The notes below the pieces were generated by a model. The model ran no database searches and was not told where the DNA came from. It worked only from the letters and a program-made list of their open reading frames with translations. The position numbers and the translations under genes are program-made. This document shows positions 7,518 through 35,508 of a DNA stretch of 64,000 nt, one piece after another. Every line of letters starts with the position of its first letter. Position 1 is the stretch's first letter. Origin of the DNA: Chloroflexota bacterium (GTDB lineage: Bacteria > Chloroflexota > Dehalococcoidia > Lucifugimonadales > JACPCL1); assembly GCA_016179765.1 (NCBI GenBank), contig JACPCL010000029.1:10333-74332 (forward strand), read 5' to 3'.

Positions 7518-7551
7518 CCCCCTGGCCCCCTTCCCTCATAGGGAAGGGGGG
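7513..7551. repeat. REP-like element, family CCTAACCCCCTGGCCCCCTTCCC-N5-GGGAAGGGGG
   Basis: cctaaccccctggcccccttccc tcata gggaagggggg with a 10-bp stem. Same family at 29473, 29566, 29739, 29898, 32339, 34379, 40264, 63264. Confidence 0.8.
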
Positions 7552-7569
7552 AACAGGAAGCAGCCACTT

Positions 7570-8961
7570 ATGCCACTACAACATACGCTCCGCCCCTATC
7601 AGGTAGAGGTAGGCAGAGCCATCCTGGACAGCGTTCTCAACCGCAAAGGCCTCACCTTTACGGTGGAGATGGCCCGCCAGGGGGGCAAGAACGAGCTATC
7701 GGCTCAGCTGGAGGTGCTGCTGCTGACGCTGTTCATGGCCCAGGGAGGCAACATCGTCAAGGCCGCTCCCACCTACGTGCCGCAGCTTCTGCACAGCATC
7801 CTGCGCCTCAAGGACCGCCTGACGGAGGCGGGCTACGGCGGCCTCTGGCGCAAGGAGGCGCTGAACATCTTCTGCCTGGGCAAGGCGCGCCAGGTGTTCC
7901 TCAGCGCCGAGCCTTCGGCGCGGGTCGTTGGGGCCACGGCCCACATCCTGCTGGAGATGGACGAGGCCCAGGAGGTGGGCAAGGAGAAGTTCTACAAGGA
8001 GTTCCGGCCTATGGGCGCCTCCACCAACGTCACCACCGTGCTGTACGGCACGCCCTGGGACGGCGATTCTTTGCTGGAGGAGGTGAAGACGGCCAACCTG
8101 GAGCAGGAACGCGCGGATGGCATTCGTCGCCACTTCCGATACAACTGGCAGGCGGTGGCCGAACACAACCCCCTCTATCTGGCCTACGTAGAAGGCGAGC
8201 AGAGGCGACTGGGGGAGGACCACCCGCTGTTTCGCACGCAGTATCTGCTGCTGCCGGCCCACACCGGCGGCGGCTTATTCTCACTCTCCCAGCAGGCCCA
8301 GCTTCAGGGCCAACACCCGAGGCAGCGGACGCCTACACCGGGGGTGACCTACGTGGCCGCCCTTGACGTGGCCGGCGGCGTGAATGACGGCGATGGGCTG
8401 GCCGACCAAGGGGACGGCAACCGCGACTCCACGGTGCTGACCATCGGCGAGCTGGATTTTGCCGCGGGCGATCCCGCCAGTGGTGAGCCCCAGGTCCGCG
8501 TGGTGGAGCACCGGTGGTGGACGGGGGTATCGCCGGCGGCGCTGCACCCGCAGCTTCTGGACCTGGCGCGGCTGTGGCGGCCCCGGCGATTGATCGTGGA
8601 CGCCACGGGCATGGGCCAGGGGACCGCCAGCTTCCTAGAACGCGCCCTGGGCGGCATGGTGGAGCCATTCGTGTTCACCGCCGGGAGCAAGTCCCGCCTG
8701 GGCTTTGACCTGCTGGCAACCGTCAACAGCGGACGTCTGAAGGCCTACGCCCCGGATGGTTCCCGGGAGCACCAGGAGCTGTGGCGACAGCTTGAGCGTG
8801 CCGAGGCCCACCTGCGGCCCAATCGCGGGCTGGCCTTTGGCGTGGCCGCCGCCAAGGGGCACGAGGACTTTCTGATGAGCCTGGCGCTGCTGGTGCAGGC
8901 CGCCCGCTATCTGCCACGGGTGGCCCGGGGGCGGGCGAAGGAGGCGGTGGGGGTGGGATAA
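7570..8961 (+). CDS. Phage terminase large subunit
   Basis: 463 aa from ATG 7570. RPYQ..., Walker A-like MARQGGKNE, Walker B LLEMDEAQ, GTPW, nuclease-domain acidic motifs ALDVAGG, DSTVLTIGE, LIVDATGMGQG. Confidence 0.75.
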   Translation: MPLQHTLRPYQVEVGRAILDSVLNRKGLTFTVEMARQGGKNELSAQLEVLLLTLFMAQGGNIVKAAPTYVPQLLHSILRLKDRLTEAGYGGLWRKEALNIFCLGKARQVFLSAEPSARVVGATAHILLEMDEAQEVGKEKFYKEFRPMGASTNVTTVLYGTPWDGDSLLEEVKTANLEQERADGIRRHFRYNWQAVAEHNPLYLAYVEGEQRRLGEDHPLFRTQYLLLPAHTGGGLFSLSQQAQLQGQHPRQRTPTPGVTYVAALDVAGGVNDGDGLADQGDGNRDSTVLTIGELDFAAGDPASGEPQVRVVEHRWWTGVSPAALHPQLLDLARLWRPRRLIVDATGMGQGTASFLERALGGMVEPFVFTAGSKSRLGFDLLATVNSGRLKAYAPDGSREHQELWRQLERAEAHLRPNRGLAFGVAAAKGHEDFLMSLALLVQAARYLPRVARGRAKEAVGVG

Positions 8962-8970
8962 AACCGAATC

Positions 8971-9034
8971 CCGTAGGGGCGAACCGGTGTGTTCGCCCTG
9001 CGCCCTGGGCCGACACATCGGTCGGCCCCTACGG
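8971..9034. repeat. Composite REP palindrome (GTAGGGGC...GCCCCTAC family)
   Basis: ccgtaggggc...gcccctacgg outer arms enclose two 8-bp hairpins (GGGCGAAC/GTTCGCCC and GGGCCGAC/GTCGGCCC). Confidence 0.75.
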
Positions 9035-9120
9035 AGGAGATCTTCTGGATAGCCGTGCGAATTGGCAAGCCGATTGTAGACAGGTGGTGTGCCGTGAGCA
9101 GCAGGAAAGGTGTCCCGGCC

Positions 9121-9390
9121 ATGGATACGTTACCCGAGTACTTCCCCTACAAGGACGACGGTTGCGAGGTGTCGCCCACGTGCCTGCGGTGCCCGCTGCC
9201 CCAATGCAAGTATGATGACCCCGGCTGGCTGGCCCGGGTCCGAAGGGACCTCCGCGACCGGCAAGTGGTGGAGGCCCGCCGCTGCGGCGACGTCACCATC
9301 GGCGACCTGGCGCGGCGGTTTGGGCTGAGCGTGAGGACGGTGCACCGGATACTGGGGAAGGGGCAGGAGAATGGGAAGTCCGACGCATGA
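9121..9390 (+). CDS. Cys-rich N-terminus + helix-turn-helix protein (phage-type regulator or small DNA-binding protein)
   Basis: 89 aa from ATG 9121: C-x6-C-x2-C-x4-C cluster (CEVSPTCLRCPLPQC), then IGDLARRFGLSVRTVHRIL HTH. Confidence 0.55.
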   Translation: MDTLPEYFPYKDDGCEVSPTCLRCPLPQCKYDDPGWLARVRRDLRDRQVVEARRCGDVTIGDLARRFGLSVRTVHRILGKGQENGKSDA

Positions 9391-9431
9391 GAGTAGGGGC
9401 AGGTTTGAACCCTGCCCCTACGTTCCCCATT

Positions 9432-9561
9432 GTCATGCTGAGGAGTCCCAATGGCATCGGGAGGACGAAGCATCTAGGGCGCACGGTGAGGTAGGCATCC
9501 GCCTTAGATGCTTCGCGATGTTCGTCCCGATGGGAATCGGCACTCACTCGCTCAGCATGAC
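9432..9561. mobile_element. MITE-like element, family with GTCAT(G/T)(C/G)(T/C)GAGG termini
   Basis: 130 bp bounded by gtcatgctgagg ... gctcagcatgac (11/12 inverted), with internal inverted repeat gacgaagcatcta/tagatgcttcgcg. Confidence 0.65.
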
Positions 9562-9660
9562 AGGAAGGGCTACGGTATTAGTGTCCGCGTGATGCACGAA
9601 TACTGGCAAAGCGTCTCTGGAATAGGAGCCGAATAGTACTCATCTCAGTGCAAGGAGTTG

Positions 9661-9696
9661 CAGCTAAAGAAAAGTAGCGTCCTTGCAGACGCTACT
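9661..9696 (-). terminator. Intrinsic terminator of the tRNA-like/micro-ORF unit
   Basis: Minus strand: AGTAGCGTC tgcaag GACGCTACT followed by TTTCTTT. Confidence 0.65.
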
Positions 9697-9721
9697 CAAA
9701 TCACAATTGTAATAATTAGAA

Positions 9722-9775
9722 TTACTTACTATGTTTTACATTTATAACAATGTGAATGGTGATAATCCAAATCAT
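9722..9775 (-). CDS. Candidate 17-aa hydrophobic micro-ORF MIWIITIHIVINVKHSK
   Basis: Hand-translated minus strand. AAAGGAG lies 4 nt upstream of the ATG; the stop TAA is followed 25 nt later by the terminator. Below the ORF-track length cutoff, in AT-rich DNA. Confidence 0.25.
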   Translation of the reverse strand: MIWIITIHIVINVKHSK

Positions 9776-9842
9776 ATCGCTCCTTTCTCGCTGAATATTC
9801 TTTCCTCCTTTCTGCCTCAGCGGAGCTTAATAGCACAATTAC

Positions 9843-9962
9843 CTGGTGGGGCCGGAGGGACTCGAACCCTCACGGAGCTTGCGCCCCACTCCCTTAGACT
9901 GGGTCTAAGCCCAAGCTTAGGCTCACTCCAAGGGAAGCGCGTCTGCCATTTCGCCACAGCCC
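9843..9962 (-). tRNA. tRNA-Leu-like (type II) gene, 120 nt, with a 39-nt sequence in place of the 7-nt anticodon loop; function or pseudogene status unknown
   Basis: Hand fold: acceptor GGGGCTG/CGGCCCC, D arm GCG-AAATGGCAGA-CGC, stem CTTCC/GGGAG closing a 39-nt insert, variable arm T-GGGGC-GCAA-GCTCC-GT, T arm GAGGG-TTCGAGT-CCCTC, A73, encoded CCA. Confidence 0.55.
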
Positions 9963-9972
9963 CATCAGGACT

Positions 9973-10001
9973 GATTGTACCACAACGTTCAAGTTCTGTC
10001 A
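9973..10001 (-). promoter_or_regulatory. Near-consensus sigma70 promoter TTGACA-17-TACAAT for the tRNA-like gene
   Basis: Minus-strand reading cTTGACAgaacttgaacgttgtggTACAATcagtcctgat, then the GGGGCTG 5' end of the tRNA-like gene. Confidence 0.7.
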
Positions 10002-10111
10002 AGTAGACTTTGAAAATTGTACAAAATGAACGCATACATATTGATTATTTGCAGATGTATTTCATTCAGGAGTAAGTCATATCGGGATGTTTTCGCATTG
10101 GAGATGCAATT

Positions 10112-11416
10112 ATGAACACGCTACCCCTTCCCCAGCAGCTTGAGCGCATGGACGCGGAGCGCCTGCGCCGCTACCAGGAGCACCTGGCCTTCTACAGCGG
10201 TCGTCAGTGGGTGGGGCGTGCCCGCCCCGGTGAGCGGCGCCTGACGTTCAACTACGCCAAGGCCATCGTGGACAAGCTGGCGTCCTACGTGATGAGCGGC
10301 GTGAGCGTGGCCGTGGAGCCGTGGGACGCCTCAACCGAGGCCGCCGAGCGGGCCCGGCGCGCCCAGGAGGCGCTGCGCCAGGTCTATCAGGAGAACGCCC
10401 TGGAGACCCTGGACCTGGACACCGAGCTGGACGCCTCCATCCTGGGCGATGGGGCCTTCAAGGTAACGTGGGACGCCGATGCCGCACGGGTACGCGTGAC
10501 GTCGCCGGACGTGCAGGGCCTCTTCGCCTGGTGGCAGCCGGACGACCCTTCCCGCCTGTGGCGGGTCGCCAGCCGCTACCGACTGTCGTCGGAGGAGGCG
10601 TCGGCTCTGTACGCCATAGAGTCGCCTGTCCCAGGGCAGCCCCAGGGACAGGTCACGGTGGTGGAGGCATGGACAGGGGATGCCTTCCAGCTTTGGGCCG
10701 GCAACCATATGATCCGGGAGTCGCCGAACCTTTACGGCTTCATCCCCTTTGTGCTGTTCCCCAACCTGCGGGTGCCCAAGGCCTTCTGGGGGGAGTCGGA
10801 CCTGCCCGCCCTGGTGGAGCCGGCGCGGGAACTGAACCGGGCGCTGTCGCAGCTTTCGGCCATCGTGGAGCTTTCGGGCAACCCCATCGCCGTGCTGGAG
10901 GGCGTGGAACGGGCCGAGGACATCGCCGTGCAGCCCGGCGCGGTGTGGGAGCTGCCGGAGCGGGCGCGGGCGTACCTGCTGGACCTTCTCCAGGGAGGCG
11001 GCGTGAAGCTGCACATTGACTTCATTGACCTGGTGTACCGGGCCATCCACGACATCTCGGAAGCGCCGCGGACGAGCTTTGGCGATAACCCCAAGGCCCT
11101 CTCTGGCGTGGCGCTGGAGATGGAGATGAACCCGCTCATGCAGCGGGTGCGGCGCAAGCGGCTGGTGCGCTCCGCCGCCTACCAGCGCCGCAACGAGATG
11201 GTCCTGCGCCTGCTGGAACAGCACACGAGGGTGTCCTACCTGCCGGTGCGTCAGGAGATGGTGTGGGGGCCGGTGCTGCCCCAGGACCGGGGCCGCCTGG
11301 TGCGGGACGAGGCGCTGCTGGTGGGGGCTGGCCTGCACAGCAAGCGCACGGCCATGGAGGCGCTGGGGGTGCGGGATGTGGAGGGGGAGGTGGGGAGGAT
11401 ACGGGGGGAGGGGTGA
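10112..11416 (+). CDS. Phage portal protein (SPP1 gp6-like)
   Basis: 434 aa. The N-terminal pattern RYQEHLAFYSGRQW...RLTFNYAKAIVDKLASYVMSG and overall size fit the portal family. GGAG lies 8 nt before the ATG. Confidence 0.7.
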   Translation: MNTLPLPQQLERMDAERLRRYQEHLAFYSGRQWVGRARPGERRLTFNYAKAIVDKLASYVMSGVSVAVEPWDASTEAAERARRAQEALRQVYQENALETLDLDTELDASILGDGAFKVTWDADAARVRVTSPDVQGLFAWWQPDDPSRLWRVASRYRLSSEEASALYAIESPVPGQPQGQVTVVEAWTGDAFQLWAGNHMIRESPNLYGFIPFVLFPNLRVPKAFWGESDLPALVEPARELNRALSQLSAIVELSGNPIAVLEGVERAEDIAVQPGAVWELPERARAYLLDLLQGGGVKLHIDFIDLVYRAIHDISEAPRTSFGDNPKALSGVALEMEMNPLMQRVRRKRLVRSAAYQRRNEMVLRLLEQHTRVSYLPVRQEMVWGPVLPQDRGRLVRDEALLVGAGLHSKRTAMEALGVRDVEGEVGRIRGEG

Positions 11417-11425
11417 GGGCAATCG

Positions 11426-11454
11426 TTGCTGGTAGGAAACTTATGTGCGAGAAT
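11426..11454 (+). promoter_or_regulatory. Possible promoter TTGCTG-17-(TGc)GAGAAT for the DUF433 operon
   Basis: Read directly 23 nt upstream of ATG 11477. Weak -35, extended -10 TG. Confidence 0.3.
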
Positions 11455-11476
11455 AGGGCGCACTGAAGGAGACCAC

Positions 11477-12166
11477 ATGTCCAACTATGTAGGGATATAC
11501 CAGATGGCCGAAGCCAGCAGGTATCTCTCCATCACCGCCCCGAAGACAAAGCCTGGGTATCCGACAGTACGTAGATGGGTGAGGAGCGGCGTCTTGCTTA
11601 ACAGTGAGCTTGATCGAAAAGAAGTGGAGGTAGTACTCTCTTTTGAGGACTTAATTTCGCTCCGGATGATTGTTGCCCTAAGACTGGCAGGTTTCTCTCT
11701 TCAGCACATACGTAAGGTTCACTTGTGGCTCCAGAATGAAGTCACGCATTACCCGCGCCCCTTTGCCTTGAGGGACCTTTGGGTAAGTACCACAGATGTC
11801 TTTGTAAGAATGGAGGGAGCTTTCCTGTCGGCCTCTAGGCAAGGACAGTTTGCCCTAGAGTTTATCAAAGATTGGCTACGTGAACTTCGTAGGCCTGATA
11901 CAGGCCCGCTTGATCTCACTTTTGAGAAGTTTGATGGCAAAGAACGGGCAATCGCTTGGAGTCCTCACGCACACATCGCCTTGAACCCCAAGATTCAGTT
12001 TGGCTCCCCCTGCATCAGTGGGACGAGAATACCCACCTACAGCGTCTGGGGAATGCACCGCGCTGGAACCCCAGAAATCACCATAGCCAACGACTATAAA
12101 GTCCCTGTAGATGCAGTTAAAGCGGCCATTGATTGGGAGCAGAAGATTGACAGGCTCGCAGCCTGA
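11477..12166 (+). CDS. HTH + DUF433 domain protein (putative antitoxin)
   Basis: 229 aa from ATG 11477 (AAGGAG RBS). N-terminal MerR/excisionase-like HTH (MAEASRYLSI...PTVRRWVRSGVL); C-terminal DUF433 pattern GSPCISGTRIPTYSVW... Confidence 0.65.
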   Translation: MSNYVGIYQMAEASRYLSITAPKTKPGYPTVRRWVRSGVLLNSELDRKEVEVVLSFEDLISLRMIVALRLAGFSLQHIRKVHLWLQNEVTHYPRPFALRDLWVSTTDVFVRMEGAFLSASRQGQFALEFIKDWLRELRRPDTGPLDLTFEKFDGKERAIAWSPHAHIALNPKIQFGSPCISGTRIPTYSVWGMHRAGTPEITIANDYKVPVDAVKAAIDWEQKIDRLAA

Positions 12167-15335: not shown

Positions 15336-18300
15336 ATGAACTGCACAAGATGTCAGACAGCTAACCCACCCGGGGCGCGGTTCTGCATGAGCTGCGGAGC
15401 ACCCCTGCCTTCGGCGTGTCCGGCCTGTAGCGCTGCCGTCCCGGCCCAGGCACGCTTCTGCCCCCAGTGCGGCCATCAGTTGCAACCAGCGCCCCCGGCA
15501 GCGCAGGCGGTTCAAGGCCAGCCGGCGCTGCCGTCCCAGATGGGCCTGCACCAGTACATCCCCCCAGAGCTTCTGGCCAAGCTGGAGTACGCGCGCGCTC
15601 ACGGCGGCATGTTGGGGGAGCGCCGCATCGTGACCATGCTCTTCAGCGACGTGCGCGGCTCCACTTCTGCGGCGTCTAGCCTTGACCCGGAAGAGTGGGC
15701 CGAGATCATGAAGGGGGCCTTTGAATACCTCATCGCGCCGGTCTACCGGTACGAAGGCACCCTGGCCCGCCTCATGGGCGACGCCATCCTGGCCTTCTTC
15801 GGCGCACCCATCGCCCACGAGGACGATCCCCAGAGGGCCGTTCTGGCGGGCCTAGAGATCCTGGAAGGCATCGCCCCTTTCAAAAAGCGGGTGAAAGAAA
15901 AGTGGGGGCTGGACTTTGACGTCCGCATCGGCATCAATACCGGCCTGGTGGTGGTGGGCGAGGTCGGCTCCGACCTGCGGCTGGAGTACACCGCCATGGG
16001 CGACGCCATCAATATGGCGGCCCGCATGGAGCAGACCGCCCAGCCAGGCACGGTGCAGGTCTCCGAGAGCACGCATCGTCTCATCGCCCCTCTCTTTGAG
16101 GCCCAGGACCTGGGGTTGATAGAGGTCAAGGGGAAAACGGAGCCGGTGCGCACCCACCGCATTGTTGGGCCAAAGGCGTTGCCTGGGCAACTGAGGGGCA
16201 TTCAAGGGCTGCAATCCGTCCTGGTGGGCCGCGATGCCGAGCTTTCCACTCTTCGCCAACGGGTTGACGAGCTGCGAAAGGGGAATGGCCAGGTGGTTTC
16301 GGTCATGGGTGAAGCCGGCCTAGGCAAGTCCCGGCTCATTGCTGAGGTGCGCCGCTGGCTCACCGACGAGGGTATCATTGCGGGCCGAGAGGCCCAGGGC
16401 AACGGAAGCGCGGCCTCTGCCGGCCTCCCGGCCATCACCTGGATAGAAGGCCGCTCCCTCTCCTACGAAACCTCTACCCCCTATGCGCCCTTTGTGGATA
16501 TGCTGACAGAGTACTTTACCTTGCGGGGAGATGAGACGGACGACGCCAAGTATCAGAAGATTACCCAGCGTCTTGCTGCCCTTGCTCCTGGCAAGGTGGA
16601 CGACATCGCCCCGTTTCTGGCTTCGGTGTTGGAGATGAAGCTGGACGGCGAGGCGTTGGAGCGTGTCCGCTACCTGGAGCCACCTCTGTTGCGGGGCAAA
16701 GTGTTTGGTGCGGTGCAGGAGCTGGTGAAGGCCCAGGCCTCCTATCAACCTCTGGCCCTGGTGTTTGAAGACCTCCACTGGAGCGACTCTGCCTCCTTGG
16801 AGCTTCTGGAGCAGCTCCTGCCCCTGACCGACCAGGCGCCCCTGATGCTCCTGGCTGTGTTCCGCCCTCAGCGGCAGGAGCCCTCATGGAGGTTCCATGA
16901 GCTAGCCTCGCGCGACTACGACCACCGGTATACACCCATCCAGCTAGAGCCTCTGGGCGAGGAGGAGACTCGCTCCCTGGTGTCCAACCTGCTGCACATT
17001 GAAGGTCTGCCGGAGCGGCTGCGCGCGCTCATCCTCCAGAAGTCGGAGGGCAACCCCTTCTTTGTGGAGGAGGTCATCCGCTCCCTGCTGGACTCGGGCG
17101 TCGTGGTCCGGGAAGGCGCTCACTGGCGGGCCACCCGAGAGATTGAGGGGATGGCCGTGCCGGACACTATTGCCGGCGTCCTCACCACTCGCCTGGACCG
17201 TCTGGAGGAGGAGGCTCGCCGGGTTATTCAGACGGCCTCCGTCATAGGGCGGGAGTTCCAGTACGAGACGTTGCGTCTGACGCACCACCCTCCGGAGGGG
17301 CTGGAGATGGCTCTGGCCGACCTCCAGCGTCGCGGCCTGCTGCGGGAGAAGAGCCGTATCCCAGAGCGGTTGTACTCCTTCAAGCACTCCCTCATTCAGG
17401 AGACGGCCTACGCCTCTCTGCTCATGAGCCGCCGGCGGGAGCTGCACTTGCGCACCGCCGAGAGCATCCTGCAATTGGACCCCAAGCGGGTGGGGGAGAT
17501 CGGGCGCCACTATTTGGAGGCGCGAGAGTACGCCAAGGCCCTGCCCTATTTGGTGCAGCAAGGGGAGCGCGCCGCTCAAGCCTCCTCAAACCCGGAGGCC
17601 ATCTTCCACTTCCGCAAGGCCCTGGAGATCCTGGCAACGGTGCGCGACGCCTCATTGGCTCGGCGCGCCCACGCCGGCCTCGGCGGCGCCCTTGCCTTCT
17701 CCTTTGACGTGCCAGGAGCCGTGGACACCTTTCATATGATGATCCATGAAGCGGAGGTCTTTGGTGACCTCCCCATGAAGGTTTCGGCCCTGAACAAGCT
17801 GGGGCGCATCACCGCCGTGATGCAGGGGCAGTTCCCTGAAGCAGAGAAACATTTGATGGAGGCCGAGCGTCTGGCGATTATCTCCCAGGACCTTCCGGGG
17901 CTTGCGGAGCTCCACATGAACTACTGCATCATTCGCACCATCTCTGGGGACATTGACGGCGCACTAGACCACCAGCGGCGCGCCATGCGGCTTGGCGATA
18001 CACCCGATCTGACAGAGGCGCGGTTGTTTGGCGCTAGCCACTGCGCTAATAGCCTAACCTTCCTCACCCGCTTTGACGAGGCATTGCCCCAGGCAAGGCA
18101 GGCCCTAGCCGCTGCGGAGGAGGCGGGGAATCGTCGCTTCATTACGGAGCCTTTGATCTTTGCTATTCCCTGGTGTCGTCTCCGTCTGGGAGAGTTGGAG
18201 GGCGCCCGAGAGGAGGCGATGCGGGGTATTGAACTGGCCTCCCAGATTGGAGCGGTGGACAATGTAGGACTGGGTTCCTATACATGGGGGCTCATCGCCC

Positions 18301-19043
18301 GGCTAGAGGGGCGGTACGAGGAGGCTATGGCCTTTCTGAGGCGCGCCATTGAAGCGAGCCGTGCCTCTGGAATGCTCTTTGTGGAGGCGGGAGCGCTCTG
18401 CGCCTTGAGCAGTTGCTATTTTGCCGTCAACCCCAAGAACCTGGACCTGGCGATGGAGTTCTCTGGCCAGGGCGAACGGCTCATGGAACATCCCTTTGGC
18501 CTGACCATGGCTGCGCAAAGCTGGACGGACATGGGCTTCTGCGCTCTCAAGCTGGGTAACCAGGAGAGGGGCCATGACCTCTTCCAGAGGGCCTTGAATG
18601 AACGAACTACCATGCGATACCTGCTGCGTCCCGCAGCCATCGTGGGACTGGCGCAGGTATCTCTGGCCCGCGGAAACACGGAGGAGGCGTCCCTTCTCGC
18701 CGAGGAGGCCAGAGCCTTTGCCGTTGAACGAGGGATGCGGCACTACTTCCCCCTCACGAGCTTGGTGCAGGCCAGAGTGGCCCAGGCCCAGGGTGACATA
18801 CCAGGATCCCTGGATTGTCTTGCCCAGGCGGAGGCCCAGACCCTGGCCATGAACATGCGCCCCATGGCGCTGGAGGTCCGTTTGAACATGGCCAGCCTGC
18901 TGGCCGCCACGGGGCAACGCCAGGGGGCGGAAGAGAAGCGCGTCGCGGCCCAAAGCACGATTGAGGAGATGGCCCACCTCTTCCAGGATGGGAGGTTGCG
19001 AGGGCAGTTCCTTGAGCATACAAAGGCATTGCTCGCGGAGTGA
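15336..19043 (+). CDS. Double zinc ribbon + class III adenylate/guanylate cyclase + AAA_16/STAND ATPase + TPR protein
   Basis: CTRCQ...CMSCG / CPAC...CPQCG; cyclase motifs MLFSDVRGST, GDAILAFFGAP, RIGINTGLVVVGEVGS, YTAMGDAINMAARME; P-loop GEAGLGKSR; Walker B FEDLHWSD; about 500 aa of helical-repeat C-terminus. Confidence 0.85.
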   Translation: MNCTRCQTANPPGARFCMSCGAPLPSACPACSAAVPAQARFCPQCGHQLQPAPPAAQAVQGQPALPSQMGLHQYIPPELLAKLEYARAHGGMLGERRIVTMLFSDVRGSTSAASSLDPEEWAEIMKGAFEYLIAPVYRYEGTLARLMGDAILAFFGAPIAHEDDPQRAVLAGLEILEGIAPFKKRVKEKWGLDFDVRIGINTGLVVVGEVGSDLRLEYTAMGDAINMAARMEQTAQPGTVQVSESTHRLIAPLFEAQDLGLIEVKGKTEPVRTHRIVGPKALPGQLRGIQGLQSVLVGRDAELSTLRQRVDELRKGNGQVVSVMGEAGLGKSRLIAEVRRWLTDEGIIAGREAQGNGSAASAGLPAITWIEGRSLSYETSTPYAPFVDMLTEYFTLRGDETDDAKYQKITQRLAALAPGKVDDIAPFLASVLEMKLDGEALERVRYLEPPLLRGKVFGAVQELVKAQASYQPLALVFEDLHWSDSASLELLEQLLPLTDQAPLMLLAVFRPQRQEPSWRFHELASRDYDHRYTPIQLEPLGEEETRSLVSNLLHIEGLPERLRALILQKSEGNPFFVEEVIRSLLDSGVVVREGAHWRATREIEGMAVPDTIAGVLTTRLDRLEEEARRVIQTASVIGREFQYETLRLTHHPPEGLEMALADLQRRGLLREKSRIPERLYSFKHSLIQETAYASLLMSRRRELHLRTAESILQLDPKRVGEIGRHYLEAREYAKALPYLVQQGERAAQASSNPEAIFHFRKALEILATVRDASLARRAHAGLGGALAFSFDVPGAVDTFHMMIHEAEVFGDLPMKVSALNKLGRITAVMQGQFPEAEKHLMEAERLAIISQDLPGLAELHMNYCIIRTISGDIDGALDHQRRAMRLGDTPDLTEARLFGASHCANSLTFLTRFDEALPQARQALAAAEEAGNRRFITEPLIFAIPWCRLRLGELEGAREEAMRGIELASQIGAVDNVGLGSYTWGLIARLEGRYEEAMAFLRRAIEASRASGMLFVEAGALCALSSCYFAVNPKNLDLAMEFSGQGERLMEHPFGLTMAAQSWTDMGFCALKLGNQERGHDLFQRALNERTTMRYLLRPAAIVGLAQVSLARGNTEEASLLAEEARAFAVERGMRHYFPLTSLVQARVAQAQGDIPGSLDCLAQAEAQTLAMNMRPMALEVRLNMASLLAATGQRQGAEEKRVAAQSTIEEMAHLFQDGRLRGQFLEHTKALLAE

Positions 19044-19177
19044 TACCAGATGGAGGGCGCGGTGATGGTCTTCCTTTTGAGTTCATGACCATTACCGTGC
19101 CAAAGCCAACACCACTGCAGTGAATGAACGGTGGACGCTGCGTCCTTCACCCATCCCACAACCGAGGTTGCGACATC

Positions 19178-20833
19178 ATGCCCAGCCCTGTCATCCTTCT
19201 GGTGGACGATGAACCCCAGGTCCTGAGTGCGGTAGAGCGCGACTTGCGTCGCCACTACCGTAACGAATACCGTTTTGTCCGGGCCGCCTCGGGCGCAGAG
19301 GCCCTGGAGGCTACCAGGCAGCTCAAGCTGCGCAGCGACCCCCTGGCCCTCTTCCTAGCAGACCAGCGCATGCCCGGGATGAGCGGCACCGAGTTCCTCA
19401 TAGAAGCCCGCAAGCTCTACCCGGAGGCCAAGAAGGTGCTCCTGACCGCCTATGCCGATACGGAGGCGGCCATCAGCAGCATCAACACCATTGGCCTGGA
19501 CTACTACCTGATGAAGCCCTGGGACCCACCGGAGCAGAAGCTCTACCCCGTCCTTGACGACCTGCTGAGCGAATGGATATCCACCGTGCAGATGCCCTAT
19601 GACGGGATACGCGTCGCTGGCACTCTCTGGTCCGCTGCCTCCCACCAAGCCAGGGACTTCCTCTCCAGCAACCAGGTGCCTTACCAGTGGCTGGACATTG
19701 AGAAGGATGCTCAGGCCCGGACGCTGGTGGAGGCGGTAGACAAAGACCTCTCCCACTTGCCGGCCATCATCTTCCCTGACGGCTCAACCCTGCTGGCCCC
19801 TGACCTGCGCACCCTTGCCGCCAAGGTCGGCCTCATCACCCAGGCCACCAAACCCTTCTACGACATCGTTGTCATCGGCGGCGGCCCCACGGGCCTGGCC
19901 ACCGCCGTCTATGGCACGTCGGAAGGGATGCGCATCGCCCTGGTGGAGCGGTACGCCACGGGCGGCCAGGCCGGGGCCAGCTCCATGATTGAAAACTACC
20001 TGGGCTTCCCCAGGGGCGTCACCGGCTCAGAGCTGGCCAGGCGGGCCACGACCCAAGCCAAACGCTTCGGCACCGAGATCATCACGGGAGTGGAGGCCAC
20101 GGGCATCCGGGTGGATGGCTCCTACCGGCACGTGACCCTCTCCGACGGCAACGAGCTGTCCTGCTACGCGGTGCTGCTGGCCACAGGGGTCCTGGCCTCC
20201 CTGCTGGACGTGCCGGGGCTTGAGGCCCTGACCGGCGCCGGCGTCTATTACTCCGCCGCCGTCACCGAGGCCTCCCACTACCGGGGCCAGCCCGTCTTTG
20301 TGGTAGGCGGCGCCAACTCCGCTGGCCAGGGCGCCATCTTTCTGGCGCGCTACGCCAGCAAGGTTGGCCTGCTGGTGCGCCGCGCCTGGCTTGACCAGTC
20401 CAAATACCTTCGCGACCAGATTGCCGCCACGGAGAACATCCAGGTGCACTTTAGCACCGAGGTGGCCGCCGTCCACGGCCAGAGGCGCCTGGAGCGCATC
20501 ACCGTCAGGAACAGCGAGACGGGGGCGACACAGGAGTTGCCCGCAGCGGCCATGTTCATCTTCATTGGCGCCCGGCCCCACACGGACTTTGTGGCAGACT
20601 TGGTGGAGCGTACACCAGAGGGCTTCATCGTGACCGGCGAAGACCTCTTTCACGATGGCCGCCGGCCCAAGGGCTGGACCCTCAAGCGCGACCCTTACAT
20701 GCTGGAGACCAACGTGCCAGGCATCTTTGCCGCGGGCGACGTGCGCCACGGCACCATCAGCCGCATCGCCACCGCTGTTGGCCAGGGCGGCATGGTGGTG
20801 AGCTTTGTAGAACAGTATTTGAAGACGGTGTGA
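19178..20833 (+). CDS. Fused response regulator / thioredoxin-reductase-like FAD oxidoreductase (no redox-active CxxC)
   Basis: Receiver ILLVDDE...LFLADQRMPGMSG...MKPW; FAD motif VVIGGGPTGLATA; NAD(P) motif VVGGANSAGQ; GIFAAGDV. Only one Cys in 551 aa. Confidence 0.8.
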   Translation: MPSPVILLVDDEPQVLSAVERDLRRHYRNEYRFVRAASGAEALEATRQLKLRSDPLALFLADQRMPGMSGTEFLIEARKLYPEAKKVLLTAYADTEAAISSINTIGLDYYLMKPWDPPEQKLYPVLDDLLSEWISTVQMPYDGIRVAGTLWSAASHQARDFLSSNQVPYQWLDIEKDAQARTLVEAVDKDLSHLPAIIFPDGSTLLAPDLRTLAAKVGLITQATKPFYDIVVIGGGPTGLATAVYGTSEGMRIALVERYATGGQAGASSMIENYLGFPRGVTGSELARRATTQAKRFGTEIITGVEATGIRVDGSYRHVTLSDGNELSCYAVLLATGVLASLLDVPGLEALTGAGVYYSAAVTEASHYRGQPVFVVGGANSAGQGAIFLARYASKVGLLVRRAWLDQSKYLRDQIAATENIQVHFSTEVAAVHGQRRLERITVRNSETGATQELPAAAMFIFIGARPHTDFVADLVERTPEGFIVTGEDLFHDGRRPKGWTLKRDPYMLETNVPGIFAAGDVRHGTISRIATAVGQGGMVVSFVEQYLKTV

Positions 20834-22227
20834 TGAAGGACATCTTGAGGAAAGTCCCCCTCTTTGCCGGCCTGGCCGAGGCTGACCTGGAACACCTCTG
20901 TCGCCTGGCGGAGGAGGTCCACCTGCCTGCGGGCCAGGTGCTCTTCCCAGAAGGCAGCGCCGGGGACAAGGCGTACGTTATCCTGGAAGGGGAGGTGGAG
21001 GTGGTCAAGGAGTCCAGCGGTCGCGAGGTGCTTCTAGCCGTGCGCCCGCCGGGAGATGTCATTGGCGAGATGGCCTTGCTGGAGGAGACGCCTCGCACGG
21101 CCACCGTGCGCGCCCGCACGGACGCCCTGCTGCTGGCTCTGAGCAAGGAGCAGTTGGATGCGTTGCTGGCCACCAGCCTCTCCGCGGCCCAGGCCCTTTT
21201 CCACACCGTCCTCTCCCGCTGGCGCGCTACCGAGGCGGTCCTGCGCCAGAGCGAGCGTATGGTGCAGCTTGGCACGCTCACGGCAGGGGTGGCCCACGAG
21301 CTGAACAACCCTGCCGCCGCCGTGAAACGCAGCGCAGACCAACTCCTGGAGGCCCTGGCCGCTCTGGAAGAGGCGCGAAGCGTGTGGGAGTCCCAGGCCC
21401 CACGGGAGGAGCAGCGGCGCACCCTCCAGGCCATGGCTCAAGCACAAGAGGAGGCGGTGGCGCACCCCCTCCACCTTGACCCGATGGCCCGCAGCGACCG
21501 CGAAGCGGAGCTCCAAGAGTGGCTAGAAACGCGTGGGGTGGAAGACGCGTGGGACATCGCCCCCAACCTGGTCTCCATGGGACACGGCCTGGAGGGAGTG
21601 AAAGCCATGACCGGAGAGTTCCCGCCGCTTCAGCTTGGGGCTGCCCTGGGCTGGCTCGTCGCCACGTACAACGTGTGGAGCCTGGTCTTTGGCATCGGCC
21701 TTGGGGCTGGGCGCATCTCCGACATCGTCAAGGCCCTGAAGTCATACTCTTACCTGGACCAGGCGCCAGTCCAGGACGTGGATGTGCAGGAAGGGCTAGA
21801 CCAGACCCTGCTCCTTCTGGGACACAAGCTAAAGTCCAACATTACGGTGCGGCGAGAGTACGCGCCGGCTCTGCCGAGAATCCACGGCTACGGCAGCGAG
21901 CTGAACCAGGTGTGGACCAACATCATAGACAACGCCGCTGATGCCCTGGAGGGCCATCAGGGGACGATTGTCCTACGCACCAGGACCGAGGATGGCTGGG
22001 CTGTTGTGGAGATTGAGGACGATGGCCCGGGCATCAAGCCGGAGGTCCAGCCCCGCATCTTTGACGCCTTCTTTACCACCAAGCCGCCGGGCAAAGGCAC
22101 CGGGTTAGGGCTCAACATCTCCTACCACATCGTAGTGGACAAGCACCGGGGGGAGATCACCGTCACCTCGCAACCAGGCAAGACCTGCTTCCAGGTGCGG
22201 TTGCCGGTGGGGCCTTCCGCAAGATAG
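20830..22227 (+). CDS. cNMP-binding domain histidine kinase
   Basis: CNB domain (LFAGL..., GEMALLEETPRTATVRA), H-box GVAHELNNPAAAV, N-box NIIDNAADA, DDGPGI, GKGTGLGL. The ATGA overlap with the upstream gene implies an operon. Confidence 0.85.
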   Translation: MMKDILRKVPLFAGLAEADLEHLCRLAEEVHLPAGQVLFPEGSAGDKAYVILEGEVEVVKESSGREVLLAVRPPGDVIGEMALLEETPRTATVRARTDALLLALSKEQLDALLATSLSAAQALFHTVLSRWRATEAVLRQSERMVQLGTLTAGVAHELNNPAAAVKRSADQLLEALAALEEARSVWESQAPREEQRRTLQAMAQAQEEAVAHPLHLDPMARSDREAELQEWLETRGVEDAWDIAPNLVSMGHGLEGVKAMTGEFPPLQLGAALGWLVATYNVWSLVFGIGLGAGRISDIVKALKSYSYLDQAPVQDVDVQEGLDQTLLLLGHKLKSNITVRREYAPALPRIHGYGSELNQVWTNIIDNAADALEGHQGTIVLRTRTEDGWAVVEIEDDGPGIKPEVQPRIFDAFFTTKPPGKGTGLGLNISYHIVVDKHRGEITVTSQPGKTCFQVRLPVGPSAR

Positions 22228-22257
22228 GTGCCGGCCATCTCATCCTGGCGCAAGGGT

Positions 22258-22294
22258 GGGGCCAGTAGGGCGGTTTCGTCGCCCTACTGGCCCC
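22258..22294 (+). terminator. 15-bp perfect hairpin after the kinase gene (REP/terminator)
   Basis: GGGGCCAGTAGGGCG gtttcgt CGCCCTACTGGCCCC, followed by atgttgttctt. Confidence 0.5.
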
Positions 22295-22525
22295 ATGTTG
22301 TTCTTGGTGGGGATAGGTGCTTGCCATGCTCTTGTGTGATTGGGTAGACTTGGCAATCAGCGTAAAACGATGGGAGGGTGCCTGTGCCTCGTCCAAAGGT
22401 GTTCGCCACGTGGGTGCTGCCCAAGGAGGCGGAGGCAGACCTGGCCTTATCCTTTTTCTAGCAATCGGCTCCGTTGCACGTTGGTGGTTTTGTGACGCTG
22501 GGCAAATGACCCAGAGGAGGCAAGC

Positions 22526-29465: not shown

Positions 29466-29996
29466 TGCGAGACCTCACCCCCTGGCCCCCTCCCTAAAGA
29501 GGAAGGGGGGCAGATGGGAGGATGAGCGAGGAGACCTCGCGTGGTGACACCGGATGGGCAGACGACCTAACCCCTGGCCCCTTCCCTAGGAGGGAAGGGG
29601 AAAAGGAGGATGGAGGACAGCGGGGGAAGGCCATGCCTGGGCGGTGCACGGGCAGACACGCTGGTCTGCCCCTACCATCGGCTCCCTCCTTTGGCAGAGG
29701 CAGGACGAGCCCTTGCCGCACGTGAAGGAGGAGGGAGACCTAACCCCTGACCCCTTTCCCAAAGGGGAAGGGGCAATTGGTGATGGGAGGGCAAGGCCTT
29801 GCGCCCCTACACGGGAATAGGCAGACACGCTGGTCTGCCCCTACGGAGACGATGGGAACGACGGAGACGAACGGGCGGCGGGAAGGCGGATGCGAGACCT
29901 CACCCCCTGGCCCCCTCCCCTAAAGAAACGTAGGGGCGCAAGGCCTTGCGCCCCTACACGGGAATGGGCAGACACCCTGGCCTGCCCCTACGGGTC
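29466..29996. repeat. Array of REP-like elements (BIME-like cluster)
   Basis: Five copies of the (G)ACCT(A/C)ACCCC(C)TG(G/A)CCCC... unit (29473, 29566, 29739, 29898 plus partial) are interleaved with GGGCAGACACGCTGGTCTGCCCCTAC and GTAGGGGCGCAAGGCCTTGCGCCCCTAC hairpins. tgcgagacctcaccccctggccccctccc is repeated at 29467 and 29891. Confidence 0.85.
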
Positions 29997-32261
29997 AGGG
30001 GCCTTTGCCTTGAGCTGTTCCTGGACGCGCTGGAGGGATTCGCGGGCGGTTTCAGCGTCGGGGGAGCCGAGGCGTTCAAGGGTCTCCAGGGCCTGGGAGA
30101 AGTGCGAGCGGGCCAGTTCCAGGTTGCCGCCGTCCTCGGCGAGCCTGCCAAGCTGGTGGAGGGAGATGGCGACGCCCCGCTGGTCGCCCAGGCGCTTTGC
30201 TATGTCCAGGCTCTGCTGGTAGAGGCCTGCGGCCTCCTCCGGGCGGCCCTGGTCCTGGGCCAGCCGTCCTAGCTGGTGGACAGTCGCGGCGATGCCCTGC
30301 TGGTCGCCCAGGCGCTTCTTGATGTCCAGGCTCTGCTGGTAGAGGTCACGGGCCTCCTCCGGGCGGCCCTGGTCCTGGGCGAGGATGCCCAAGCTGTGAA
30401 GGGATTTGGCGATGCCCTGCTGGTCGCCCAGGCGCTTTCTTGTGTCCAGGCTCTGCTGGTAGAGGTCACGGGCCTCCTCCAGGCGGCCCTGGTCCTGGGC
30501 GATAGCGCCCAGGTTGTGCAGGGTTGTGGCGATGCCCTGCTGGTCGCCCAGGCGCTTCTTGATGTCCAGGCTCTGCTGGTAGAGGTCGCGGGCCTCCTCG
30601 GTGCGGCCCTGGTGCTGGGCCAGGATGCCCAACTGGTGGAGGGTGACGGCGATGCCCTGCCGGTCGCCCAGGCGCTTCGCTATCTCCAGGCTCTGCTGGT
30701 AGAGGTCTGCGGCCTCCTCGGTGCGGCCCTGGTCCTGGTTGGCGATGCCCAGGTTCTGCATTATGGTCGCTAGGCGCTGGTCATCCCCGATTGCCTTCGC
30801 CGCCTCTACTGCCGTCTCACCCCAGGCGATACGCTCTACCCAATAGCCTCGCACAAGCAGGAAATGGTACAGGTTGGTGACCAACTCGGTGAGCAAGAGG
30901 GCAGCTGATTGCTCTTTGGGCCTGGCAAGGCACCACTCCATGGAGCCACGGATGTTGGGGAAGTCCAGGGCGACGGCGTTGAGGTCCTGCTCTGAAGGCT
31001 GGTCGTGGGCGCCGGTGAACCGGGCGTAGTATGCCGCCAGGCGGAGCTGCAAGGCGTCGGCGTTCTCCAGCTTGCCACTGGCGTACTGCTTCAGCAGGGG
31101 GTGGAGGCTGTAGCGGCCCGTGGCCTGGTCGCGGCGGAGGAGGGAGACGCCCACGAGATTCCCCATCTCCAGGCCAATGCCTTCATCAAAGAGGGACTGG
31201 ATGGCCTCGGCGGAGAAGTCGGGGCCGGCGAAGAGGCTGAGGGCGGCAAAGAGGCGCTGTTGTATCCGAGGCAGGCGGCGGTAGGAGAGGTCGAAGGCGG
31301 CGCGGACGCTGCGGTTTGGGTCTTGGAGGACGTCAAAGGGACGGCTCTGTAGCTGGCGGAGCAAGTCCGCTGCGCTCATGGGGCCAAAGTTGGGTGCGGC
31401 CAAGATAACTGCTAGTGGATTGTAGTCCAGGAAGCGGAGGACCTCTTTGATCGTAGGGAGTTCGGTGTCTGAGGGCTGGCGGCTATAGGAGGCAAAGAGC
31501 GTGAGTGCGTAGGGTTCTTCAAGGGGCTTCGGGTCAATGCGTTCCAGGCCAGGCACGGGGTTGCGGCTGGTGGCAAGGATTGGGGCAGGGACGACGTGCT
31601 GGCAGAAGGCGTCCACGGCGGCAGCGGCGGGGCCGTCGGCGTTGTTGAAGGCCAGCAGCGGCAGCGAGTCGACAAGGTTGGCCCTGGGGGCCTGGATTTT
31701 ATCATCAAGGTCGCTGATTGCGGTGACGGCCTGGGCATTGATATGACGGGCCACCTGGTCGCAGAGGGCTGGTAGAGAATCAGGGGTAGTTTCAAACCAG
31801 TAGAGGTGGTCTTTGAAGGCGCGCTGGATTTCGGGGGAGCGCAGGGCCTGGATGGCAAGCTCAGTCTTGCCAATGCCTGGCTCGCCGTGGAGAAGAACGG
31901 AGCGGCCATGCAGGACGTGCTCGATGACCTGGGTTTTTTCTGCGTCGCGGCCAACGAAGTGAGGGTTGCCATAAGGTAGGCCGCTGCCGGTAAGGGTGGC
32001 ACTGGGACTATTGTGAGGAGGATTGGGTGGTTTGGATTCAGCGGGCGCAGAGCCACCAGGTGTGTTCACATTCACGTTGATGTTTGGGTTGACGTTGATA
32101 GTAGGCGATGCGGTTGCCGTAGCCGAGGGACCACCTGCGCCCTCAGACGGCGGGTCTGTTGGTTTGCGATGAAACAACCACCAGAGCCACCGTGCAATGA
32201 GGCCTATCGCAACGATGGCACCGGGGATGGCTACGATTAGACGCCAATCAAGGTTTTGCAT
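29988..32261 (-). CDS. Membrane-anchored NB-ARC/STAND NTPase with C-terminal TPR array
   Basis: N-terminal TM helix (LIVAIPGAIVAIGLIARWLWWLF), low-complexity INVNPNINVNVN, P-loop LLHGEPGIGKTELA, LLAFNNAD, then about 7 units of a 40-aa TPR-like repeat (DLYQQSLDIKKRLGDQQGIA..LH.LG..AQDQGR.EEAR). Confidence 0.8.
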   Translation of the reverse strand: MQNLDWRLIVAIPGAIVAIGLIARWLWWLFHRKPTDPPSEGAGGPSATATASPTINVNPNINVNVNTPGGSAPAESKPPNPPHNSPSATLTGSGLPYGNPHFVGRDAEKTQVIEHVLHGRSVLLHGEPGIGKTELAIQALRSPEIQRAFKDHLYWFETTPDSLPALCDQVARHINAQAVTAISDLDDKIQAPRANLVDSLPLLAFNNADGPAAAAVDAFCQHVVPAPILATSRNPVPGLERIDPKPLEEPYALTLFASYSRQPSDTELPTIKEVLRFLDYNPLAVILAAPNFGPMSAADLLRQLQSRPFDVLQDPNRSVRAAFDLSYRRLPRIQQRLFAALSLFAGPDFSAEAIQSLFDEGIGLEMGNLVGVSLLRRDQATGRYSLHPLLKQYASGKLENADALQLRLAAYYARFTGAHDQPSEQDLNAVALDFPNIRGSMEWCLARPKEQSAALLLTELVTNLYHFLLVRGYWVERIAWGETAVEAAKAIGDDQRLATIMQNLGIANQDQGRTEEAADLYQQSLEIAKRLGDRQGIAVTLHQLGILAQHQGRTEEARDLYQQSLDIKKRLGDQQGIATTLHNLGAIAQDQGRLEEARDLYQQSLDTRKRLGDQQGIAKSLHSLGILAQDQGRPEEARDLYQQSLDIKKRLGDQQGIAATVHQLGRLAQDQGRPEEAAGLYQQSLDIAKRLGDQRGVAISLHQLGRLAEDGGNLELARSHFSQALETLERLGSPDAETARESLQRVQEQLKAKAPDP
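30121..30780 (-). repeat. In-frame 120-bp tandem repeat (about 5.5 units) encoding the TPR units
   Basis: The 120-nt period is visible directly. Units at 30301 and 30541 differ at 13/120 positions by hand count, and their first 47 nt are identical. Confidence 0.9.
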
Positions 32262-35455: not shown

Positions 35456-35508
35456 GTACGAATGACGATCTGGCGTGACGTTCCTTGGGGAATCTCAAGG
35501 ACACCGCA

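Follow-up and report, generated by a model that had tools for sequence, protein, structure and literature searches.

A candidate cyclic-nucleotide relay to a cysteine-free flavoprotein, encoded by three adjacent genes of a Chloroflexota bacterium

Do a nucleotide cyclase, a cyclic-nucleotide-binding histidine kinase and a response regulator with a flavoprotein output, encoded side by side in the chromosome of a Chloroflexota bacterium, form one signalling route, and does such a route serve ordinary physiology or defence against phages? The stretch analysed here (the window) comprises 64,000 nucleotides of contig JACPCL010000029.1, and the three genes in question, called G1, G2 and G3, form one cluster of co-directional genes on its plus strand at 15336-22227, according to the open reading frame (ORF) calls. 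NCBI lists the products of these three genes, with identical lengths and encoded consecutively (MBI2171011, MBI2171012 and MBI2171013), from a Chloroflexi metagenome-assembled genome on a 206-kb contig. The genes are as follows (aa, amino acids).

15336-19043, plus strand: G1 (MBI2171011.1), 1235-aa protein with a double zinc ribbon (DZR), class III cyclase, AAA_16 STAND NTPase and TPR repeats (ORF, Pfam, exact NCBI match)
19178-20833, plus strand: G2 (MBI2171012.1), 551-aa response regulator (ORF, Pfam, NCBI match)
20833-22227, plus strand: G3 (MBI2171013.1), 464-aa histidine kinase that binds cyclic nucleoside monophosphates (cNMPs) (ORF, Pfam, AlphaFold2 (AF2) model, NCBI match)

The cyclase domain of G1 and the cNMP-binding (CNB) domain of G3 are the sole ones of either kind in the window and, because both lie in one co-directional cluster, their grouping is not a matter of chance. 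From comparison of sequences we hold it reasonably probable that the cassette is a chromosomal, housekeeping second-messenger relay, in which the cyclase would produce a cNMP that acts on the kinase, and the kinase would in turn act on the receiver-flavoprotein.

A conserved pair of kinase and receiver-flavoprotein

The search for homologues of G2 was saturated, with at least 8,000 homologues at E<=1e-20, most of which have 551-557 aa and are 65-70% identical to G2. A scan with one genome per species placed the module in at least 600 species, and the best 80 loci, which were examined, belong to Chloroflexota, Acidobacteriota, Gemmatimonadota, Cyanobacteria, Actinomycetota (including Streptomyces, L070 and L077, and Micromonospora), Bacteroidota, Pseudomonadota, Planctomycetota and others, about 10 phyla. 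The statistics on the pair are based on these 80 species-level loci, 80 metagenomic loci and further look-ups; those flanked on either side by 1.7 kb or more number 110. In 99 of the 110, the receiver-flavoprotein adjoins a kinase whose DHp insert and CA domain are homologous to those of G3; a CNB-type N-terminus was detected for the adjacent kinase in 87 of 110, and the remaining adjacent kinases have the same core with PAS, GAF or REC sensors. Across about 10 phyla the two proteins are 50-70% identical, constant in length and syntenic, and no other response regulator was consistently adjacent to the pair in the flanks examined. The predicted cognate pairing of G2 with G3 is strongly supported by this conserved adjacency and, given the interchangeable sensors (PAS, GAF, REC or CNB), the pair is an old, modular two-component system, a widely distributed core. 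A library search with the receiver and the following glutaredoxin (Grx)-like domain gave 481 clusters at E<=1e-30, of which a good number consist of fragments; the G2 family is so strongly conserved that it collapses at 50% identity.

Since a receiver and a Pyr_redox_2 module are found in one protein that is encoded beside a histidine kinase, G2 is a response regulator of the TrxB type. This class, as listed in P2CS/P2RP, includes the uncharacterised pair SCO7298-SCO7297 of Streptomyces coelicolor (PMC9739842), and one Leptolyngbya genome has been counted with one TrxB response regulator and one cNMP_binding histidine kinase (PMC9953108). In work on sulfane sulfur and acid shock, both of which induce it, SCO7298 has been treated as the thioredoxin reductase gene trxB3 (PMC9952706, PMC2631018). 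By the class listing, a receiver, a Pyr_redox_2 or thioredoxin reductase (TrxR)-like module and an adjacent kinase are common to the two pairs. The Streptomyces kinases of the family differ from G3 in that their CNB-like domain is degenerate, without the Arg of the phosphate-binding cassette, and that no cyclase is adjacent. The full-text literature searched contained no characterised CNB-histidine kinase or REC-TrxR protein, but only listings in censuses.

The features of G3 are these.

20917-21174, plus strand: CNB domain, aa 29-114 (Pfam 4.6e-24; family alignment)
21295-21297, plus strand: codon of the phospho-accepting His155, in the H-box AHELNNP (sequence, family alignment, AF2)
21406-21609, plus strand: helical insert specific to the family, aa 192-259, separating the two DHp helices (AF2, pLDDT 85)
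21895-22209, plus strand: HATPase_c domain, aa 355-459, with N, G1, F and G2 boxes (Pfam 2.4e-25, 89.6 bits)

Across 86 homologues, the kinase residues H155, N363/N367, D396xGxG, FFTTK and GTGLGL do not vary, and the DHp insert of about 68 aa is kept in all kinase homologues, regardless of their sensor domain. The initial annotation had read G3 as a CNB domain fused to a HisKA/HATPase kinase; the CNB cassette and the HATPase are as it described and an H-box is present, whereas the Pfam HisKA model has no match in G3, in which the 68-aa helical insert splits the DHp domain. In the AF2 model (pLDDT 85), one continuous helix (116-187) joins the CNB domain to the H-box His155. Foldseek matched the CNB domain to cAMP-bound GlxR and CRP and the catalytic part to HK853, CckA and ThkA; the fold matches listed for the model comprise only such expected kinase and CRP folds, and among them is no solved structure with the CNB-kinase architecture.

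The CNB domain itself scores 84.6 bits against a Pfam cut-off of 27.5, and its phosphate-binding cassette, GEMALLEETPRTATV, has the form G78-E79...P87-R88-T-A. CNB-like domains of the family include a canonical class, in which both cassette residues (Glu and Arg) are present and which is found chiefly in Chloroflexota but also in some Actinomycetota, and degenerate classes, with TGxLPFSRM in Acidobacteriota and others and with GE but no Arg in Cyanobacteria. The canonical cassette is absent from 64 of 108 family loci and present in G3 of the window. In kinases of Acidobacteriota, Gemmatimonadota, Bacteroidota, Cyanobacteria and Streptomyces (L007-L079; for example L027 11653-13092 and L014 11769-13223), the cNMP-contacting Glu and/or Arg have been lost, and these degenerate domains presumably bind a different ligand. 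The cassette, kept in Chloroflexi and some Actinobacteria and lost elsewhere, thus offers a natural series for the change of ligand of a sensor domain.

In G2, three domains follow one another.

19193-19534, plus strand: receiver, aa 6-119 (Pfam Response_reg 9e-14; invariant columns)
19607-19828, plus strand: glutaredoxin/mycoredoxin-like fold, aa 144-217 (NCBIfam TIGR02200 2.6e-9; AF2 secondary structure)
19859-20821, plus strand: TrxR-fold FAD/NAD(P)H module, aa 228-548 (Pfam Pyr_redox_2 228-537, 8e-36)

The receiver residues D10, D11, T90 and K113 and the phospho-acceptor D62 are conserved in 170 homologues. The Grx-like domain has no cysteine (WSAASH stands at the position of CxxC), and a stand-alone glutaredoxin from a relative matches this domain in all loci. 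In the TrxR module the motifs GGGPTG, GGANSAG and AAGDV (FAD, NAD(P)H and GD) are kept and conserved across homologues, the module is 50-60% identical across phyla, and Foldseek gave a TM score of 0.9 to TrxRs in the FR state with the AF2 model of G2 (pLDDT 89, pTM 0.76). As in low-molecular-weight TrxR, the fold and the cofactor motifs are present (the best sequence match in the PDB is 7jyp, 8.6e-52), and, as in AhpF, the TrxR module comes after a domain of the thioredoxin fold. From both, however, G2 differs in an N-terminal receiver, a family-specific insert of 19 aa (DLFHDGRRPKGWTLKRDPY) and the lack of CxxC in the NADPH as well as the Grx-like domain. SAAV of G2 aligns with the redox-active CAAC of 7jyp, no cysteine was found in the nine residues around the CxxC site of the TrxR module in any of the 170 homologues, and the score against TIGR01292 (thioredoxin-disulfide reductase) is 234.5 bits, below the cut-off of 343.45. 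G2 is therefore a TrxR-fold flavoprotein and not a thioredoxin-disulfide reductase, and its candidacy as a thioredoxin reductase was rejected; of the first description, a receiver with a thioredoxin-reductase-like flavoprotein, the fusion and the fold hold, the enzymatic identity does not, and the third, Grx-like domain had been missed. With the AF2 model, Foldseek found the expected TrxR folds only and no solved REC-TrxR architecture. A large family that spans phyla and is labelled "thioredoxin reductase (NADPH)" or "FAD-dependent oxidoreductase" is thus without redox-active cysteines, and the label is wrong.

Such losses also lend themselves to a reversed logic, in which the TrxR-fold flavoprotein would be a redox or NAD(P)H sensor and its receiver a phosphate sink or feedback element, the true output being encoded elsewhere. 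The loss of catalytic residues is typical of sensors derived from enzymes; here the catalytic cysteines are missing throughout the 170 homologues, the Grx-like domain is degenerate too, and the PAS, GAF and REC sensors on kinase cores of the same family speak of modular rewiring. However, strict conservation of the motifs for FAD, NAD(P)H and GD, in a module that has kept its sequence across phyla, fits a working redox enzyme; TrxR-type ferredoxin-NADP reductases work without CxxC; and the flanks hold no second response regulator in a consistent place. We regard the reversed logic as quite unlikely, and the family probably catalyses a conserved flavoenzyme reaction under phosphorylation control.

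The cyclase and its linkage to the pair

The N-terminal half of G1 holds its enzymatic domains and the C-terminal half its repeats.

15342-15473, plus strand: double zinc ribbon, aa 3-46, four CxxC pairs (Pfam DZR 9.2e-13)
15630-16157, plus strand: class III cyclase domain, aa 99-274 (Pfam Guanylate_cyc 8.4e-25)
16221-16850, plus strand: AAA_16 STAND P-loop NTPase core, aa 296-505 (Pfam 2.4e-23)
17766-18725, plus strand: TPR/MalT-like sensor region, aa ~811-1130 (Pfam TPR_MalT, TPR_12, TPR_2)

The Pfam scan agrees with the domains first read from the letters (zinc ribbon, cyclase, AAA_16/STAND and TPR), and helical repeats continue beyond aa ~1130 to the C-terminus. The cyclase domain reaches 87.9 bits against a cut-off of 21.9, and in an alignment with CyaB (3r5g) and Cya2 (2w01) the pair of metal-binding Asp (FSDVRG and MGDA) and the transition-state Asn and Arg (NMAARME) are all present, as the description of the cyclase motifs as intact-looking had implied. 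Canonical purine-specifying pairs are Lys/Asp for ATP and of the Glu/Cys type for GTP; the pair of G1 is Arg/Thr, not Lys/Asp. Its Thr is the class IIIb state, as in CyaB, and Arg in place of Lys is common to G1 and the STAND-type orthologues that adjoin receiver-kinase pairs. The NTPase (AAA_16, 83.9 bits against 32.6; Walker A GEAGLGKS, Walker B VFEDLHW) is accompanied by TPR_MalT at 46 bits against 45 and by partial matches to TOMM kinase/cyclase and AfsR models, and G1 therefore belongs with the signal-transducing STANDs of MalT/AfsR-type regulators. No part of the cassette evolves faster than the TPR region, which has 55-60% aa identity where the receiver protein has 85-98%.

Is this cyclase wired to the pair? 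In the species-level set a cyclase domain lies within 10 kb in only two of the 80 loci; the view drawn from this count, that the cyclase is not syntenic, was revised after closer metagenomic relatives and positional enrichment. A DZR-cyclase-STAND-TPR gene stands directly upstream of the receiver gene in L081 (receiver protein 97% identical; the cyclase gene is cut by the contig end), L082 (83%), L086 (84%) and L140, and likewise in L166-L169 and L171, so that the order cyclase-receiver-kinase occurs in relatives spanning 63-97% receiver identity. At least five arrangements of cyclase genes near the pair were recognised: a STAND-type cyclase upstream of the receiver gene; a STAND-type cyclase downstream of the kinase gene (L061, Sphaerobacter; L127); a stand-alone cyclase of 160-190 aa between the two (L084, L166, L168, L171); one of ~275 aa that immediately precedes the receiver gene (L160, L114); and a cyclase downstream (L132). 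Two to four cyclase genes surround the pair in L166, L168 and L171, four of them in L171. A positional test used the first 165 loci, with an inner flank (within 3 kb of the pair, 751 kb in total) and an outer one (1,073 kb): 16 cyclase ORFs were found in the inner flank, all at most 1.6 kb from the pair, and none in the outer. Cyclase neighbours occur in 9 of 44 loci with the canonical cassette versus 1 of 64 with a degenerate one (one-sided Fisher p=0.0012, in a test that ignores shared ancestry among loci).

This limit of the test is one of several points that weigh against a dedicated relay. The look-ups L166-L169 are a biased sample, having been selected as likely carriers of G1 homologues. 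Around 90% of the loci of the wider family have no nearby cyclase, and of three G1-like homologues (~54% identity) one lies beside a receiver-kinase pair, one is cut off by insertion sequence elements and one stands alone; because most loci lack a cyclase and not all G1-like homologues lie beside a pair, the kinase could read a global cNMP pool. The Arg that replaces the base-specifying Lys suggests that neither the product nor even robust activity of the cyclase should be assumed. Finally, in a comparison of L081 (1-5657), the closest relative, with the window (16975-22227), the cyclase gene is 68% identical in nucleotides, the receiver gene 95% (with 11% third-position differences), the kinase gene ~91% and a flanking APH gene 74.5%; the 68% of the cyclase against the 95% of the receiver suggests that the former evolves or recombines independently of the pair. 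The boundary of this mosaic is sharp and falls at the border of G1 and G2, which suggests recombination of the receiver-kinase segment or replacement of the sensor gene. The initial annotation had named lack of synteny in relatives as an argument against the relay, and the outcome is divided: the cyclase is upstream of the pair in the relatives of the window, and missing from the great majority of the wider family.

These points can be taken together as a loose coupling, in which G2 and G3 would be autonomous and read the cell-wide pool of cAMP or cGMP, while G1, one of numerous STAND cyclase paralogues in Chloroflexi, would be its neighbour in this lineage without a dedicated link. The majority of family loci, without an adjacent cyclase, and the mosaic G1 gene of L081 are consistent with it, as are the very large size of the G1 family (6,886 matches at E<=1e-30), some members of which have no receiver-kinase pair nearby, and a second AAA_16 and TPR protein within the window (29988-32261). 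Yet cyclase ORFs occur only in close proximity to the pair (16 versus 0), in at least five independent arrangements, in the company of intact cassettes and, in L166, L168 and L171, in clusters around the pair; loose coupling is rather unlikely. The reading adopted here is that the cyclase may be a recurrent, lineage-specific input module for the cNMP-competent version of the pair, and not an obligatory third component.

Further genes recur beside the pair in relatives. A Lactamase_B_2 hydrolase of the metallo-beta-lactamase (MBL) fold is encoded directly upstream of the cyclase in five loci.

L082 282-1052, L086 5416-6228, L166 3458-4231, L168 234-1007 and L169 3429-4235: MBL hydrolase genes

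These hydrolases have weak matches to class II cAMP phosphodiesterases and, in L082 and L168, precomputed matches to Apyc1, and they are probably the signal-terminating cNMP phosphodiesterases of the system. In the flanks of L166, L167, L168, L170, L171 and L084, ergothioneine-type genes, EgtB-like (DinB_2/FGE-sulfatase) and EgtD-like (Methyltransf_33), are also recurrent, as are OsmC, a stand-alone glutaredoxin and a small zf-UBP protein. Further recurrent neighbours of the pair are a CMD/AhpD-like protein and a CoA_binding_2 protein, and many kinase homologues themselves end in a CoA_binding_2 domain. These neighbours suggest a link of the pair to thiol and oxidative-stress metabolism. Homologues of the MBL, zf-UBP, EgtB and EgtD proteins were searched for in the 64-kb window and are absent from it, and none of the other recurrent neighbours (glutaredoxin, OsmC, CMD/AhpD-like protein, CoA_binding_2) is found there.

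Phage defence and the genomic setting

The layout of the cassette also recalls known antiviral systems, and the initial annotation had drawn parallels to Avs and Pycsar. As a defence system, an Avs-like STAND protein would sense a phage protein through its TPR region and raise a cNMP alarm, upon which the CNB-kinase would activate a toxic flavoprotein that depletes NAD(P)H or produces reactive oxygen species. With Avs, G1 shares the tripartite order of N-terminal effector, STAND NTPase and fast-diverging C-terminal TPR-like sensor, and with Pycsar the cassette shares a class III-like cyclase gene beside a gene for a CNB-domain protein; an Apyc1-like MBL hydrolase adjoins the cyclase in relatives. 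PADLOC, applied to G1-G3 and eight neighbouring or related proteins, gave PycC (6.7e-24), the CNB part of PycTIR (1.4e-15) and TPR matches, which are generic and at the level of domains (the PycTIR/Effector models cover CNB residues 19-146), and no match to an Avs model at E<=0.01; G2 had no match, nor had the housekeeping neighbours tested. The N-terminal enzyme of G1 is a cyclase, not a nuclease, protease, Sir2 or TIR domain, and G1 further differs from Avs in its MalT/AfsR-type affinity and its lack of a defence neighbourhood. Unlike in Pycsar, G3 carries its CNB domain in front of DHp and HATPase_c and not with a TIR or transmembrane killer, and the histidine kinase so formed feeds a response regulator in a three-gene chromosomal operon. 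The constant, syntenic pair, conserved across phyla, is unlike patchy defence genes of fast turnover, its recurrent neighbours are thiol and redox genes, and the MBL gene is host-encoded inside the operon, as would fit a signal-terminating phosphodiesterase. The fast evolution of the TPR region and the mosaic boundary in L081 leave defence a small probability. With PADLOC matches confined to single domains, a housekeeping context and a pair that has been conserved in so many phyla, defence is not supported, and we consider it highly improbable; it was rejected as the main explanation, and the cassette is most likely a widespread housekeeping signalling module, not a phage-defence system.

A precedent for such signalling, of which the initial annotation had itself warned, exists in Mycobacterium tuberculosis, where Rv0386, Rv2488c and Rv1358 combine a class III cyclase, a MalT-type ATPase, TPR repeats and a LuxR helix-turn-helix (HTH) domain (bioRxiv 10.1101/2024.03.06.583649). 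The N-terminal class III cyclase, the MalT-clade AAA_16 STAND and the TPR repeats are shared with G1, and this group serves housekeeping or virulence signalling, not defence. It differs from G1 in a terminal DNA-binding HTH, in the absence of an N-terminal double zinc ribbon, in its base-specifying pair (Gln/Asn, according to the same source, versus Arg/Thr in G1) and in not being known in an operon with a CNB-kinase.

Two features bear on transcription of the cassette.

19044-19177, plus strand: spacer of 134 nt between G1 and G2, with GAGG 10 nt before the ATG of G2
22256-22296, plus strand: terminator-like hairpin, 19-bp stem with 12 G-C pairs (consensus scan only)

The spacer is exactly of the length first reported. 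An ATGA overlap had been claimed for G2 and G3: the stop and start do overlap, but not as ATGA, since the junction reads gtGATGa, in which the TGA stop of G2 and the ATG of G3 have one base in common; an alternative GTG start of G3 at 20830 would give a four-base overlap, GTGA. The consensus scan found no promoter-like or terminator-like site in the spacer, and its promoter hits (two, versus 1.2 expected in shuffled sequence) do not exceed expectation. The hairpin begins 29 nt past the stop of G3, no such site lies between the three genes, and it is the probable end of the transcription unit. The Rfam scan of the whole window matched only two tRNAs, both away from the cassette, in and around which it recorded neither a riboswitch nor any other RNA element.

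The cassette has as neighbours in the window argB, argJ, pdxA and genes for a 2-hydroxyacid dehydrogenase, an OmpR-type regulator, an ornithine cyclodeaminase, an aminotransferase, an APH protein and a hydantoinase. The second STAND-type protein (29988-32261, minus strand) has 757 aa, with AAA_16 and strong TPR_12/TPR_10 repeats and without a cyclase domain; this genome is evidently rich in such proteins. An intergenic repeat of ~130 nt that contains a pair of G+C-rich hairpins (TTCCCCCTTGACGGGGGAAGG and CCTCCCCCGCAAGGGGGGAGG), for which Rfam has no matching family, occurs at 35318-35467 and 45329-45425, and a further copy at 4090-4262 of L081 lies between the receiver and kinase genes and abolishes the stop/start overlap there. 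Among the housekeeping genes there are also a terminase-like ORF (7492-8961; weak match to PHROG 38) and an SPP1-type portal ORF (10112-11416; Pfam 1.3e-14, PHROG 64 4e-28), and between them a tRNA-model match on the minus strand (9847-9963) that is unusually long (117 nt, 39.9 bits). The region 7492-11416 looks like a small phage-derived remnant or integration scar. Right after the portal-like ORF, a MerR-HTH and DUF433 protein is encoded on the plus strand (11426-12166; PHROG family of unknown function, 2e-10).

The proposed relay

In the relay proposed, binding of a ligand or partner at the TPR region of G1, together with nucleotide-dependent oligomerisation, would bring the cyclase domains into active dimers, which would make a cyclic mononucleotide, cAMP being the default guess. 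The cNMP would dock on the canonical CNB domain of G3, and the long helix between CNB and DHp would relay the signal, shifting the balance of kinase and phosphatase activities at His155. G3 would exchange phosphate with Asp62 of G2, and phosphorylation of the receiver would switch an NAD(P)H flavoenzyme of the TrxR fold, devoid of a redox-active disulfide. The cyclase would be an input restricted to certain lineages and coupled to the cNMP-competent form of the G2-G3 core and, in many relatives, a putative MBL-fold cNMP phosphodiesterase, whose gene is absent from the window, would accompany it. The conserved pair, the upstream cyclase in relatives, the positional enrichment, the association with the intact phosphate-binding cassette and the intact residues of all three proteins support such a relay. 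A route from cyclase through cNMP and CNB-kinase to the flavoprotein had been suggested in the initial annotation, and comparative genomics and the motifs speak for its course, with two corrections: the flavoprotein is not a TrxR, and adjacency of the cyclase is limited to certain lineages.

What is known of cNMP signalling in bacteria concerns chiefly transcription factors of the CRP type, Pycsar defence and a small number of enzymes. Cyclic dinucleotides are known to gate histidine kinases; cNMPs, to our knowledge, are not. In CckA with c-di-GMP and KdpD with c-di-AMP, as is proposed for G3, a cytoplasmic nucleotide messenger binds the kinase and sets its output (PMC8214093; PDB 5idm); these kinases, however, use cyclic dinucleotides on a CA or USP domain, whereas a cyclic mononucleotide is predicted for G3 on an N-terminal CNB domain of the CRP/PKA type. 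All parts of the cassette are of known kinds, and what is new is that a predicted CNB-gated kinase is combined with a cyclase of its own and with a TrxR-fold output lacking the cysteines, as well as the size of the mis-annotated family.

Taken jointly, the elements would make the cassette the first recognisable pathway of a cNMP-gated histidine kinase with its own cyclase (and, in relatives, its phosphodiesterase), whose output is control of a cysteine-free flavoenzyme; we offer this only tentatively. One operon encodes every part of the route from cNMP to phosphorelay, so that it is directly testable with three purified proteins. If the joint reading is true, the STAND/TPR sensor, which diverges fast and recombines, would permit different lineages to couple different stimuli to a conserved core. 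A flavoenzyme family that is found in about 10 phyla, has 8,000 members or more and is annotated throughout as thioredoxin reductase would then catalyse a different NAD(P)H-dependent reaction, and this reaction would be tied to low-molecular-weight-thiol or oxidative-stress metabolism, in line with its ergothioneine, CoA, glutaredoxin and OsmC neighbours.

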